Notes: generated by a model from the sequence alone, not told the origin. Positions 11,764 to 14,912 are shown, counted from the stretch's first letter. The stretch is 52,224 nt of DNA from Parcubacteria group bacterium (GCA_013202585.1 JABMPQ010000006.1:1-52224), one strand, 5' to 3'. Translations and numbers: made by a program.

Positions 11764-12183
11764 ATGTTGCTACCAATCAAGACAATACCAATCAGCCAAC
11801 TCAAGCCCCACGAGCAGATTTGCCCGGATCACTTGCTTTGTTTACAGCAAAAGATCAGTCGTGACAGAATTTTCACGCATCCAATCGTGATTGATCGTAC
11901 GACCAAAATTATTCTTGATGGACATCATCGTTGCCAGGCACTCAAGCGTCTTGGTCATGCTAAGATTCCGTGTATTTTAGTCAACTATCGTAGCTGCCAG
12001 GTCGCAATCAAATCACGTTGTCATCAGGATATTGATAAAGAGACAGTCATCAAGCACGCCCTCCGGGGTAAGCTCCTGCGACCCAAGGCCACCAAACATT
12101 ATTTGCGGCTGGGCAGCGATCAACTAATTCCATTCGAAAAAATAAAAACCAACACCAAAATCCCTTTATCTCAATTAATTTAA
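11764..12183 (+). CDS. ParB/Srx-fold protein resembling the SerK/SbnI small-molecule kinases
   Basis: LKPHEQ, HPIVID, ILDGHHR and C-terminal KETVIKHALRGKLLRPKATKH. Start moved to ATG 11764 because the track start lies inside the terminator. Confidence 0.75.
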   Translation: MLLPIKTIPISQLKPHEQICPDHLLCLQQKISRDRIFTHPIVIDRTTKIILDGHHRCQALKRLGHAKIPCILVNYRSCQVAIKSRCHQDIDKETVIKHALRGKLLRPKATKHYLRLGSDQLIPFEKIKTNTKIPLSQLI

Positions 12184-12188
12184 AAATC

Positions 12189-13442
12189 ATGTCAAAATTA
12201 CCACCCAAATCACCTCATTGCGAGGACAACCAGGCCGCCAACAAGAAATGTCTCTTGCTCTATTCGGGCGGAGTAGATACCTCGATTTGTGTTTACTTAC
12301 TCAGTCAGTACTATGGCTACCAGGTTATCACACTAACGATTGATGTTTGCCAGGATGAGGGCGTGTGTCAAAAAATGGCGGACAAAGCGAAAAAACTCGG
12401 TGCGATCAAGACGATCGTCTATGACGCTAAGAAAGAATTCGCCGACAAGTATATTTCGCAGGTTATCAAGGCTAACGGCTTTTACGACGATCATTATCCG
12501 TTGGGAACTTCGCTCGCTCGTCCGATGCAAGCGGCGCTAGCAGTCAAAGTAGCCCAGCAAGAGAAGGTCGATGCTGTTGCTCACGGCTGCAAGGGCAGGG
12601 GAGCGGATGCCTTTCGTCTCAACATGGTTTTCAATTACTTGTTGCCGGATGATATCGAGCTGGTCTTGCCGATCAACGATTGGTGGCCGACGCGTCAGGA
12701 GGAGATCGACTTTGCCTATGCCAACAAGATCCCCGTCCCGGTGCCGCAAGACAACCCCTATAGCTATGACGACAACATTCTCTCCAATGCTATCAATTAC
12801 GGATCGATCGATGACATTAAGGAACAAGCTCCCGAAGACGCTTACAAGTGGACGGTTCCAACTCAGAAGGCGCCTGCTCAGTCGCAACAGATCCAGCTAG
12901 GATTCAAGGAGGGCTTGCCCGTGTCGCTGGACGGCCAGAAGATCAGCCTCGACAAGCTAATGGTCAAACTCAATCAGCTGGGCGGTAAACATGGTGTTGG
13001 CCGTATGGATATGATTGAAAATGGACTTTACGGTAATAAATTTCGTTGGGTCTATGAAGCGCCGGCAGCTGAGATCTTGATCACAGCTCACCAGGAGCTG
13101 GAGAAACTAGCCCTCCCCGCCGAGACGCTCTACTTCAAGCAGGAAATAGCTGACAAAAAATGGGTCAAGCTGGCATACAAGTCGTTCTTTTACAGTCCGC
13201 TGACCAGCGCGCTGATGAAGTTGATCGACGAGACGCAGCAATATGTCACCGGCAAGGTCACTCTTCAGCTCTACAAAGGTAAAGTTTCGGTGATAAAGCG
13301 TGTCTGCGCCAATACCCTGACTCAGCTTGATCCCAAGGACTTAGTGTCTCAGGAAACAATGGACAAGGTGCCCTATGGTTTTGAGGAATATGCTTTCGCT
13401 AGCAAACATGCGGAGGTAATTGGCCAGCATTTTAGTAATTAA
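12189..13442 (+). CDS. argG: Argininosuccinate synthase homologue with divergent substrate loop
   Basis: YSGGVDTS PP-loop, YPLGTSLARP, HGVGRMD, YEAPAA; aspartate loop reads HGCKGRGADAFR. Confidence 0.88.
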   Translation: MSKLPPKSPHCEDNQAANKKCLLLYSGGVDTSICVYLLSQYYGYQVITLTIDVCQDEGVCQKMADKAKKLGAIKTIVYDAKKEFADKYISQVIKANGFYDDHYPLGTSLARPMQAALAVKVAQQEKVDAVAHGCKGRGADAFRLNMVFNYLLPDDIELVLPINDWWPTRQEEIDFAYANKIPVPVPQDNPYSYDDNILSNAINYGSIDDIKEQAPEDAYKWTVPTQKAPAQSQQIQLGFKEGLPVSLDGQKISLDKLMVKLNQLGGKHGVGRMDMIENGLYGNKFRWVYEAPAAEILITAHQELEKLALPAETLYFKQEIADKKWVKLAYKSFFYSPLTSALMKLIDETQQYVTGKVTLQLYKGKVSVIKRVCANTLTQLDPKDLVSQETMDKVPYGFEEYAFASKHAEVIGQHFSN

Positions 13443-13451
13443 TTAATCACT

Positions 13452-14912
13452 ATGAGTAAAAAACAAAGTAACATATTCTGGAATGATGGCGAGAACGCTG
13501 ATTTTGGCAAATACGCGGTCGAGTACGCCGCTGGTGAGGACATAGTGCTAGACAAGGAGCTGGTGCAATACGAATGCCAGGTCAACAAGGCGTATATGTC
13601 GATGTTGGCTAAGCAGGGGATATTGAGTCAGGCGCAGGTCGACAAAATCATCACTGTGTTGGATGAGATCGTGCACAAAGATCAGCAGGGTGAGTTTGTG
13701 TTGGATCAGAGCCTCGAGGACGTCCACTCCAATGTCGAAAAGTACGTTATCGATAAGCTAGGCGTAGAGATAGGAGGGAATCTACGCCTCGGGATGGCGC
13801 GCAATGACCAAGTCTATACTGATTTGCGGTTATATATGAAGGATCAGTTGGTGATGACGGTAAAGGCGGCGATCGATACCGCTCGGGCGCTGACTGATGT
13901 CGCTGGTAAGCACCTTAATACGATCATGCCAGGCTATACTCACTTGCGCATTTCCCAACCCATCACTTACGCGCACTACTTGACCAGCAAGATCTATCAT
14001 TTATTGGATGATGTGGATAACTTGCAGCATGATTTTACTCAGGTTGATCGGTGCCCATTGGGGATTTTCGAAATGGCCGGAACTCATCTTGATATTGACC
14101 GTCAGTATTTAAGCGATAAGCTAGGTTTTAGCGGCAGCACGGGTCATAGTCTCTATACCGCTAACACGCGCGGTGAGCTAGAGGCGAAGGTGATTTCTTC
14201 CCTGAGCATGCTAGCGCTACATATCAGGCGCACCATGAATGAGGTTATAATCTTCTCCACCCACGAATTTGGTCTACTGGAGATCGACGATCTCTACGCT
14301 ACTGGTGGCACGGCTCAACCTAACCTCAAAAATCCGGACACGCTTGAAGTGCTGCGGGCTAATATGGCCAAGCTGCCGAGCTTGTATCAAGAGGCGATTT
14401 CGATCATGGACATGTTGCCTTCTGGTTTTATGCGTGATACGCAGCAAACAAAGCCATTAATATTCCAGGCCTTTGCCACGATGTTGCCGGGCTTGGCGAT
14501 GTTTAAAGGAGTGATGGTAAGTCTTAAGGTCAATAAAAAGCGCCTGGCCGAGCTGGCCGAGCAAAATTTTGCCACCGCCCCGGACATGTGTATTCAAATC
14601 GCGCTCAAGACGGGGGTGAGCTTTCGCGAGGCGTATAAAGTGATGAAATATCTGATAAAAGATGGTATATTGAATGAAAGTTTAGCGGAGCTAACACCAG
14701 TTTTGTTGTTAGCTGCTGGCCAGAAAGTGCTGGGTAAAAAATTAGTCATGGCTCAGAAAGAAATTGCTGAGATAGCGGATGCCAAGAGTAGTGTCCAGGC
14801 TCATACTAGTCAAGGTGGACCGGCGCCGACGGAAGTCAAAAAAATGCTGACAGAGATTGGCGTCAAGTTACAAGAATGTGAAGAGTGGGTTAAAAAAGTT
14901 AGTAATAAATAA
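13452..14912 (+). CDS. argH: Argininosuccinate lyase homologue with divergent signature
   Basis: LEDVHSNVE, ARNDQV, MPGYTHL, KNPDTLE; signature reads TGGTAQPNLKNP. Confidence 0.85.
   Translation: MSKKQSNIFWNDGENADFGKYAVEYAAGEDIVLDKELVQYECQVNKAYMSMLAKQGILSQAQVDKIITVLDEIVHKDQQGEFVLDQSLEDVHSNVEKYVIDKLGVEIGGNLRLGMARNDQVYTDLRLYMKDQLVMTVKAAIDTARALTDVAGKHLNTIMPGYTHLRISQPITYAHYLTSKIYHLLDDVDNLQHDFTQVDRCPLGIFEMAGTHLDIDRQYLSDKLGFSGSTGHSLYTANTRGELEAKVISSLSMLALHIRRTMNEVIIFSTHEFGLLEIDDLYATGGTAQPNLKNPDTLEVLRANMAKLPSLYQEAISIMDMLPSGFMRDTQQTKPLIFQAFATMLPGLAMFKGVMVSLKVNKKRLAELAEQNFATAPDMCIQIALKTGVSFREAYKVMKYLIKDGILNESLAELTPVLLLAAGQKVLGKKLVMAQKEIAEIADAKSSVQAHTSQGGPAPTEVKKMLTEIGVKLQECEEWVKKVSNK

Follow-up and report, generated by a model that had tools for sequence, protein, structure and literature searches.

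The stretch of DNA analysed here, which we call the window, comprises 52,224 nucleotides from a Parcubacteria group bacterium (GCA_013202585.1, JABMPQ010000006.1:1-52224), and its positions 11,764 to 14,912 carry three closely spaced genes on the plus strand. The first (11764..12183) encodes, from its ATG, a 139-amino-acid (aa) ParB/Srx-type homologue of free serine kinases, which we call the mini-kinase; the second (12189..13442, after a 5-bp gap) a 417-aa divergent argininosuccinate synthase (ASS), ArgG*, assigned by Pfam and NCBIfam matches and by alignment to structures of the PDB; and the third (13452..14912, after a 9-bp gap) a 486-aa divergent argininosuccinate lyase (ASL), ArgH*, assigned by family matches and PDB alignments. 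On the same strand they are preceded by a T-box-like leader (11458..11713) overlapping an intrinsic terminator (11697..11752) and followed by the gene of a 317-aa protein like ornithine carbamoyltransferase (OTC; 14928..15881). The genome of the window (G000) measures 1.22 Mb and is 79% complete, those of its relatives range from 0.5 to 2 Mb, and the near homologues of the studied genes bear the names of Patescibacteria: Roizmanbacteria, Gottesmanbacteria, Chisholmbacteria and Yanofskybacteria. The conversion of citrulline to arginine via argininosuccinate is textbook chemistry and, to our knowledge, this route is nearly universal. An initial annotation of the window had pointed to these open reading frames (ORFs) and their spacing, to the motifs PHEQ, DGHHR and PKATKH of the small protein, and to a series of substitutions in ArgG and ArgH; all of them were recovered when the sequence was re-read and aligned to solved structures.

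ArgG* is, by its sequence, a predicted adenylating enzyme of the argininosuccinate synthase family in which the aspartate site and part of the citrulline site are altered. It belongs to PF00764, of which it is the sole match in G000, and to PF20979, keeps the ATP pyrophosphatase (ATP-PPase) motif YSGGVDTS, and exceeds the NCBIfam cut-offs (TIGR00032, 352.1 against 268.2 bits; NF001770, 384.2 against 334). Compared with the solved ArgG structures 4u7j and 1j1z, it reads ahgcKgRgAdAFr for ahgcTgKgNdQVr, so that relative to HGxTGKGNDQVR the Thr becomes Lys, the Lys Arg, the Asn Ala, the Gln Ala and the Val Phe; it also reads nAiNyg for hiSyEgg (AIN replacing SYE) and ieNGlyg for veNRfvg (ENG replacing ENR), and the equivalents of the LGTSLARP region are kept. 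We take the residue numbers of human ASS to fall on the ArgG motifs with Thr119, Asn123 and residue 124 on HGxTGKGNDQVR. In the human enzyme, Thr119, Asn123 and residue 124 bind aspartate and Tyr87, Asn123, Arg127, Ser189, Glu191, Glu270 and Tyr282 bind citrulline, according to an excerpt of PMC13289927. At positions 119, 123 and 124 the window protein has K, A and D (two of three changed) and the larger of two ArgG* subclades K, A and G (all three changed). At the citrulline site, the motif alignment indicates that Y87, R127, E270 and Y282 are kept in the window protein, with N123 replaced by A, S189 by A and E191 by N; in the larger subclade R127 is a Gln as well. The best 120 ArgG relatives listed, out of a search of 5.8 billion clusters, divide into 65 with HG[CN]KGRGA[DG]AF[RQ], AINYG and ENGLYGNKF[RK]W and 55 with the canonical HG[CSA][TS]GKGNDQ[VA]R. 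The initial annotation had stated that the Asp and Arg of the loop are kept, which is right for the subclade of the window, HGCKGRGADAFR, where Asp124 and Arg127 persist, and wrong for the larger subclade, HGNKGRGAGAFQ, which has Gly and Gln there.

The substitutions of ArgH* fall in the signatures of its superfamily. Relative to the solved ArgH/delta-crystallin structures 2e9f and 1k7w, ArgH* has gMArndq for aRSrndq (ARND replacing SRND), thlR for thlQ, with the catalytic His of THL kept, and gGTaQpNLknp for gSSiMpQKknp, by which the superfamily signature GSSxMPxKxN becomes GGTAQPNLKN; in the C1 and C2 regions N, D, T and H are kept, Ser is changed to Ala and Gln to Arg. The protein nevertheless scores over its NCBIfam cut-off (TIGR00838, 342.8 against 279.5 bits; PF00206, 131 bits), and because both ArgG* and ArgH* pass such thresholds they are named in databases as ordinary enzymes. 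Among 119 listed database clusters of ArgH relatives, 76 have GGT[AG][QH]PNLxNP (one of them WGT), [IM]ARND and THLR, and the other 43 are canonical: the signature Leu occurs in all 76, GSS or TSS and the Lys in all 43 canonical relatives listed, and identity to the window ArgH is at least 45% within the first group and at most 35% in the second. FastTree trees built with the motif columns removed recovered both an ArgG* clade (62 tips, support 0.938) and an ArgH* clade (70 tips, support 0.977, stem 0.29). The conservation of the substitutions across 65 ArgG* and 76 ArgH* database clusters lies far beyond chance and is not drift.

ArgG* and ArgH* make up a conserved pair of genes that occurs in Patescibacteria and in a small number of archaea (DPANN, Bathyarchaeia). 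A single-protein scan of genome contigs with ArgH* returned nothing; the loci came from an alignment-based pattern scan, with one genome per species, which gave 13 ArgH* loci (47-59% identity) and 65 loci of lower identity. Counts out of 14 genome loci given below refer to the window and these 13. In 7 of the 14 genomes, G000 included, no Lyase_1 member other than ArgH* was found. ArgG* lies directly upstream of ArgH* in 12 of the 13 scanned loci, the thirteenth starting at ArgH* at a contig end; an arginyl-tRNA synthetase (ArgRS) gene follows downstream on the same strand in 8, and OTC-like genes adjoin the pair in 5. T-box-like leaders precede four of the five other loci scanned for them (34-46 bits, E 6e-7 to 8e-4), and the fifth has the core motif only. 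Across 13 loci holding both genes (the window and 12 fetched loci), the pairwise identities of ArgG* correlate with those of ArgH* (r = 0.70, with 0 of 5000 permutations as high), as expected for genes inherited together. The variants are thus distinct and co-diverged, as had been claimed at the outset: they are monophyletic with the motifs masked, co-located and co-varying. A wider spread of the Leu signature to other ArgH-like groups was considered and dropped, the 65 lower-identity loci (L028-L092) having matched via another motif and all eight that were aligned being canonical.

The ArgG*/ArgH* module of the window looks like a replaced island, because two genomes of the same genus hold a canonical ArgG, 40% identical to ArgG*, and both are without the mini-kinase. 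In one of them, G001, the canonical ArgG reads HGCTGKGNDQVR and adjoins the same pyrD. This ArgG (L013, G001:C19, ORF 9799-11406, 535 aa, upstream of pyrD) carries a C-terminal extension, and the ORF at 11471-12970 (499 aa) has a C-terminal tail much like it; by eye both tails are MGS-like. No Lyase_1 gene (ArgH, PurB or fumarase) was found in G001, which is 100% complete, so this appears to be an ArgG without a lyase partner. With 899-947 aa, the ArgRS encoded behind ArgH* is of unusual length in L019 (4741-7440), L027 (10142-12895) and L025 (3887-6730); that of L019 carries an N-terminal B3_4 domain, and the N-terminus of the one in L022 gives a match to the NrtL model, an ArgS-related anticodon-binding protein. 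In a Bathyarchaeia locus (L024), where 5863-6678 and 9550-10557 are the two flanking genes, the ArgG*-ArgH* pair has a HAD-type hydrolase on one flank and, on the other, a threonine-synthase-like pyridoxal phosphate (PLP) enzyme that scores under the thrC cut-offs.

The sequence profile and the predicted model support the assignment of the small protein as a putative SerK-type kinase without the middle domain. Only its N-terminal part is matched by the NCBIfam models of SerK (2e-16) and SbnI (4e-8), at scores far under the equivalog cut-offs (59.9 against 380 bits and 32.9 against 350 bits). The family profile aligns to SerK of Thermococcus kodakarensis (5x0b) with an E value of 2.3e-22 in two stretches, 20-119 and 204-241, which pair kpHEq, DGHHR and sPKTTRH; the SerK middle domain (about residues 120-203) is missing from the whole mini-kinase family, in keeping with what the initial annotation had said of the window protein. 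The Glu targeted by the E30Q/E30A crystal mutants of SerK is kept in the mini-kinase (5x0j and 5x0k read HQQ there). Across 57 family sequences no variation is seen at D52, G53, H54, H55, R56, Y75 or H112, and at least 90% retain H16, E17, K108 and T109. The AlphaFold2 model built from the 57-row alignment has a pLDDT of 95.0 and a pTM of 0.87 (with just 7 rows the model was unusable, at pLDDT 41), and ranks 1 to 9 of its Foldseek comparison with the PDB are all SerK or SbnI (fold score TMq 0.67-0.82, E 1e-8 to 6e-7, SerK at 0.82), against a TMq of at most 0.46 for ParB, Noc and sulfiredoxin folds. Within the PDB, SerK (T. kodakarensis) and SbnI (Staphylococcus) thus match it best in both sequence and fold, and they share with it the ParB/Srx fold, the HE motif (Glu30), DGHHR and the C-terminal PKTTRH. 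The mini-kinases differ from them in length, 116-140 aa against about 242-254 aa, and in genomic setting: their Patescibacteria-type loci place them next to TrpB2, CysK/M or ArgG*/ArgH*, accompanied by the matching aminoacyl-tRNA synthetase. They define a putative mini free-serine-kinase family that had gone unnoticed. A word-based search that gave five clusters had made the protein seem a near-orphan, a view discarded when a metagenome profile scan returned 211 relatives.

The genes around these relatives point to the substrate. From the metagenome scan 80 loci were kept, of which 78 have a kinase ORF of 72-205 aa, mostly of about 130, and neighbours were counted within two genes of the kinase in these 78. 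A TrpB-like PLP enzyme stands beside the kinase in 16 loci, 7 of them also with tryptophanyl-tRNA synthetase (TrpRS), and the one such protein scanned, that of L097, is of TrpB2 type (635 bits on NF009057); a CysK/M-type enzyme does so in 8, 2 of them also with cysteinyl-tRNA synthetase (CysRS), and ArgG*/ArgH* in 4, with ArgRS following in 2. A CobW-like GTPase is the neighbour in 14 loci, several with a CysK/M-like gene a few genes away, and in 27 nothing was recognised, many of these contigs being short. TrpB2 enzymes use O-phospho-L-serine, according to a passage of PMC11917138 that cites Busch 2014, and Thermococcus SerK supplies phosphoserine to CysK, as an excerpt of PMC5120207 describes. 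By analogy serine is the likely substrate of the mini-kinase, because the family partners O-phosphoserine-using TrpB2 or CysK/M enzymes in 24 of the 78 loci. A salvage enzyme, a kinase and the cognate tRNA synthetase form a recurring design beyond arginine, seen in the Trp modules of L097, L100, L129, L146, L151, L153 and L156 (TrpB2-like enzyme, kinase, TrpRS) and in the Cys modules of L106 and L122 (kinase, CysK/M, CysRS). These loci resemble the arginine module in having a partner enzyme of the same mini-kinase family and then the cognate tRNA synthetase; they differ in that TrpB2 and CysK/M are PLP enzymes that swap the phosphate for indole or sulfide, whereas the arginine module would take phosphoserine as a nitrogen donor.

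Three arrangements join the kinase to ArgG*/ArgH*. The window has the order T-box, kinase, ArgG*, ArgH* and OTC-like gene; a second order, ArgG*, kinase, (methyltransferase), ArgH* and ArgRS, is found in Roizmanbacteria (L026) and in the metagenome contigs L170, L166, L164 and L119; and in Gottesmanbacteria (L020) a 636-aa SerK::ArgH* fusion has the kinase at residues 1-127 and ArgH* at 140-636, the same protein recurring as P0191 from a cluster of 8 sequences. Both ArgG* subclades take part in this linkage. A hidden Markov model (HMM) of the mini-kinase matched at 2 of the 13 ArgH* loci (167 kb) against none of the 65 ArgH loci of canonical signature (824 kb), and canonical ArgG or ArgH occurred in none of the 80 kinase loci. 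SerK-type matches of at least 30 bits are present in 9 of the 13 ArgH* genomes but in just one of 40 relatives of G000. Seven further ArgH* genomes encode longer SerK/SbnI homologues elsewhere, five SbnI-like (261-285 aa) and two SerK-like (289 and 352 aa), and one of the two SerK-like genes adjoins a CysK/M-like gene. The variants are conserved and linked to the kinase outside the window as well, and the co-occurrence across genomes that the initial annotation wished to see is borne out in two further gene orders and a fusion, less so in frequency, the kinase being in cis in only 3 of the 14 genome loci. In a kinase tree of 130 columns, from which no conclusion is drawn, the window kinase and the Arg-linked kinases of Roizman/Gottesman type stand apart from each other among Trp- and Cys-linked ones.

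The leader places the kinase under a putative arginine-specific control. It matches RF00230 over the full length of the model (cmscan; model positions 1-219, 62.6 bits, E 5.5e-13), and has the core AGGGUGGUACCACGG at 11668. Like the T-box riboswitches of that family, it has a stem I, a specifier loop, the core UGGUACCACG and a terminator overlapping the antiterminator; unlike them, it stays under the gathering score (62.6 against 93), which no match anywhere in the window reaches. RNA folding yields a terminator hairpin (about 11697-11746) with a U-run behind it (minimum free energy -31.7 kcal/mol, z -3.32, none of 200 shuffles equally stable), and the 5' arm of the hairpin overlaps with the antiterminator of the T-box on the latter's 3' side; a longer GTG frame of the kinase ORF, from 11713, would begin inside this terminator. 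In the cmscan alignment GAA-CGA-G falls at the specifier position, which we read as CGA (Arg), with ACG (Thr) as an alternative register, and G000 holds both tRNA-Arg(UCG) and tRNA-Thr(CGU). We read the leader as a probable Arg T-box, as had been proposed, with a full-length family match and, in the register we favour, a CGA specifier, at a score under gathering level. Since the kinase sits under this Arg-specific leader, it would be induced by arginine shortage.

The OTC-like enzyme presumably makes citrulline, as the ureido substrate, from carbamoyl phosphate. In the window it scores 272-290 bits on the NCBIfam OTC models, just under their cut-offs, against 134 bits on the aspartate carbamoyltransferase model; it reads DTWMDME where OTCs have DxWxSMG, the ornithine loop SMG thus becoming DME, and HCMP for HCLP. 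The OTC-like proteins of other ArgG* loci (among L017-L020 and L027) have SLRTR and HDLP, and three ArgG* loci also contain an adjacent second carbamoyltransferase, which has diverged further (HCLPAD, KSW).

In the scheme we propose, the pair would form arginine from a ureido compound, citrulline being the likeliest one, through adenylation, addition of an amine and lyase cleavage, with an amine donor that would no longer be aspartate and would most likely be O-phospho-L-serine, made from serine by the kinase. ArgG*, with its ATP-PPase motif kept, would adenylate citrulline and join it to phosphoserine through the amino group of the latter, whose phosphate would be taken by the Lys and Arg that replace Thr119 and Lys121. 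ArgH*, which is without the superfamily Lys and Ser for the fumarate carboxylate, would then remove the phosphate by beta-elimination in the manner of XcbC, and the resulting enamine would hydrolyse to arginine and pyruvate. The scheme also covers a variant order, in which ArgG* would ligate serine, the kinase would phosphorylate the adduct and ArgH* would carry out the elimination. The repeated joining of the kinase to the pair, once by fusion, suggests from gene content that phosphoserine may replace aspartate as nitrogen donor, and to this explanation, the variant order included, we assign an even chance. Its general form is more tentative and in our view falls a little short of that: Patescibacteria and some DPANN and Bathyarchaeia would make arginine with the nitrogen of serine, ArgH* would release arginine, pyruvate and phosphate, and the mini-kinase family would be a general supply of phosphoserine for Trp, Cys and Arg, each wired to its tRNA synthetase.

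Parts of this chemistry have parallels in known systems. XcbC, which takes part in bacterial coenzyme M synthesis and is homologous to ASL, eliminates phosphate rather than an amine, according to an excerpt of PMC9457059. ArgH* shares with it the ASL branch of the aspartase/fumarase superfamily and scores 202 bits on the XcbC model; compared by model score and description, the two differ in that the argH model scores higher (343 bits), the XcbC cut-off of 575 is not approached, and the proposed substrate is an arginine adduct instead of phosphosulfolactate. The dehydration of lanthipeptide synthetases by a kinase and a lyase provides an analogy. With canonical ArgG/ArgH (ASS1/ASL) the pair has in common folds, families (PF00764 and PF20979; PF00206), gene pairing and arginine context, and it is set apart by its separate clades and its link or fusion to a serine kinase. 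Another non-canonical citrulline-to-arginine route, the recently described ADP-forming arginine synthetase, uses citrulline, NH3 and ATP, according to the available part of PMC11032458. That enzyme belongs to an unrelated family and acts in a single step, without an adduct of ArgG/ArgH type. We know of no enzyme that uses phosphoserine as a nitrogen donor. Full-text literature searches returned nothing on such a donor and no mention of an ArgG/ArgH variant tied to a serine kinase or of a ParB-fold/lyase fusion; neither of the latter two is mentioned in the accessible portions of the ParB-fold survey PMC12704722 and of PMC13759103 (GapMind 2026), supplements aside.

Several observations weigh against phosphoserine as the donor, the case for which is built throughout on comparative genomics. 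Both proteins pass the NCBIfam argG (352 over 268) and argH (343 over 280) equivalog cut-offs, and the ureido substrate itself may differ, because the citrulline-site residues N123, S189 and E191 are changed too. An elimination should still need a carboxylate site that stabilises the carbanion, yet the superfamily Lys is a Leu, so that elimination by ArgH* would fit only if the Arg of THLR or another residue takes over. Aspartate appears to be available to the organism, because PyrB/PyrI are encoded in the same window. The kinase, in cis at so few of the genome loci, is not a constant member of the module, and no SerK-type gene of at least 30 bits was found in 4 of the 13 other ArgH* genomes (G043, G044, G047 and G051). 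Long SbnI-like kinases occur also in four of five sampled Microgenomatia genomes with a canonical-range ArgH match (about 300 bits). Finally, a CysK/M-like gene is present in G000, a genome 79% complete in which CysE and SerC went undetected; because of the CysK/M-like gene and the missing CysE, the kinase may also, or instead, serve cysteine synthesis.

Much of this would be accounted for by the main rival, an ordinary synthase and lyase still using aspartate and releasing fumarate, in which the odd residues are lineage-specific, co-evolved alternative contacts and the kinase lies nearby for the supply of phosphoserine to CysK/M, for serine assimilation or through operon shuffling in small genomes. 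The equivalog scores, the 11 of 14 loci without a kinase in cis, the CysK/M-like gene without CysE and the long kinases beside canonical-range ArgH all agree with it, as do the retained ATP-PPase motif, catalytic His (THL) and equivalents of E270 and Y282, and a canonical pair would have the same context of ArgRS, OTC-like gene and T-box. We nonetheless think it somewhat unlikely, for the larger ArgG* subclade has every named aspartate-binding residue replaced, 43 of 43 canonical ArgH listed have the Lys and Ser of the fumarase/aspartase signature and 76 of 76 ArgH* have them replaced, the fusion and the two other linked orders contrast with the absence of the kinase from all 65 canonical ArgH loci, and the window kinase would be under Arg-specific control. 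A different ureido substrate (a modified, carrier-bound or tRNA-bound citrulline), or a donor unrelated to the kinase, with arginine or Arg-tRNA formed after a further step, is improbable. It would suit the changes at N123, S189 and E191 and the Gln for R127 in the larger subclade, the DME, SLRTR and HDLP motifs of the OTC-like proteins with the second divergent carbamoyltransferase that often adjoins, and the very tight linkage of ArgRS, fused to B3_4 in some loci; but the equivalents of Y87, E270, Y282 and the LGTSLARP region are kept, no deacylase or carrier gene recurs across the 13 ArgH* loci, and the linkage and fusion of the kinase would be left unexplained. The least probable reading, very doubtful in our opinion, makes the small ParB/Srx protein a nucleotide-binding regulator, a nuclease or a DNA-binding ParB-like protein and its link to the pair regulatory. 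The ParB-CTPase fold has many non-kinase roles and a SerK-like archaeal protein is reported to bind CTP, according to a passage of PMC12704722; the lack of the SerK middle domain and scores far under the SerK/SbnI cut-offs go the same way. Against it, the 139 aa hold no helix-turn-helix or dimerisation domain, the whole chain superposes on SerK (TMq 0.82) and poorly on ParB or Noc (at most 0.46), conservation extends to the catalytic Glu, to DGHHR and to the SerK-specific KTTRH segment at the C-terminus, and the neighbours are metabolic enzymes that use phosphoserine.

The co-occurrence of long SbnI-like kinases with ArgH* in genomes was rejected as specific evidence for the phosphoserine reading, since a class-level control shows the same kinases with canonical-range ArgH; ArgH* occurs in only 1 of the 121 genomes of the Microgenomatia sample, and the co-occurrence is not counted because it is confounded by general metabolic capacity. 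In the search for a hint of the by-product, no RidA-like or pyruvate-related gene was seen among the 10 ArgH* neighbours inspected.

If the phosphoserine reading is correct, the argininosuccinate scaffold would have been kept while its handling of aspartate and fumarate was replaced, in what would be a new way of carrying out a central step of biosynthesis. Phosphoserine would for the first time be seen to act as amino donor, the ASL family would gain a second example of an enzyme that eliminates phosphate, and the arginine capacity of ultra-small bacteria and archaea, whose copies of these genes currently go by argG and argH, would be scored differently. The components of the module are all short, soluble enzymes.

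Some kinase loci have surroundings of other kinds. In G045 (L205, 1101-3949) and G048 (L206, 4683-7545) the long SbnI-like kinase forms an operon with a class-V aminotransferase and a gene like phosphoglycerate dehydrogenase; an excerpt of PMC5120207 describes the same trio of kinase, aminotransferase and phosphoglycerate dehydrogenase for serK in Desulfurococcales. The CobW-like operon stands head-to-head with the mini-kinase in L123, L126, L128, L131, L138, L141, L143, L147-L149, L154, L155, L161 and L167, and 7 of these 14 loci have an FAD/NAD(P) oxidoreductase within two genes of the kinase. In a genome of the same order as G000 (L004, G006:C48, 700-8297), in which ArgG had no match, translations read by eye place the mini-kinase amid genes for what seem to be glutamate-cysteine-ligase-like, renal-type dipeptidase, succinylglutamate-desuccinylase-like and ATP-grasp-like proteins, which looks like a different, peptide-like pathway.

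Outside the arginine module, the plus strand of the window is annotated with CarAB (1990-6403) and with a PyrB/PyrI pair (6482-7922) that is separate from the OTC-like gene, and four ORFs of unknown function lie between pyrI and the T-box-like leader. On the 3' side of the OTC-like gene follow, in order, a pyrC-like gene, pyrD, a 299-aa kinase-like ORF, pyrK, an EamA transporter, pyrE, further ORFs and pyrF. The 299-aa ORF (18016-18915), between pyrD and pyrK, has weak matches to CotS/GntI-type kinases (E 1e-4 to 8e-4) and would be a kinase-like gene, as yet unexplained, within the pyrimidine cluster. The dihydroorotase-like protein (15903-17033, 376 aa) matches its models only from about position 50 onwards, the usual N-terminal segment being absent.

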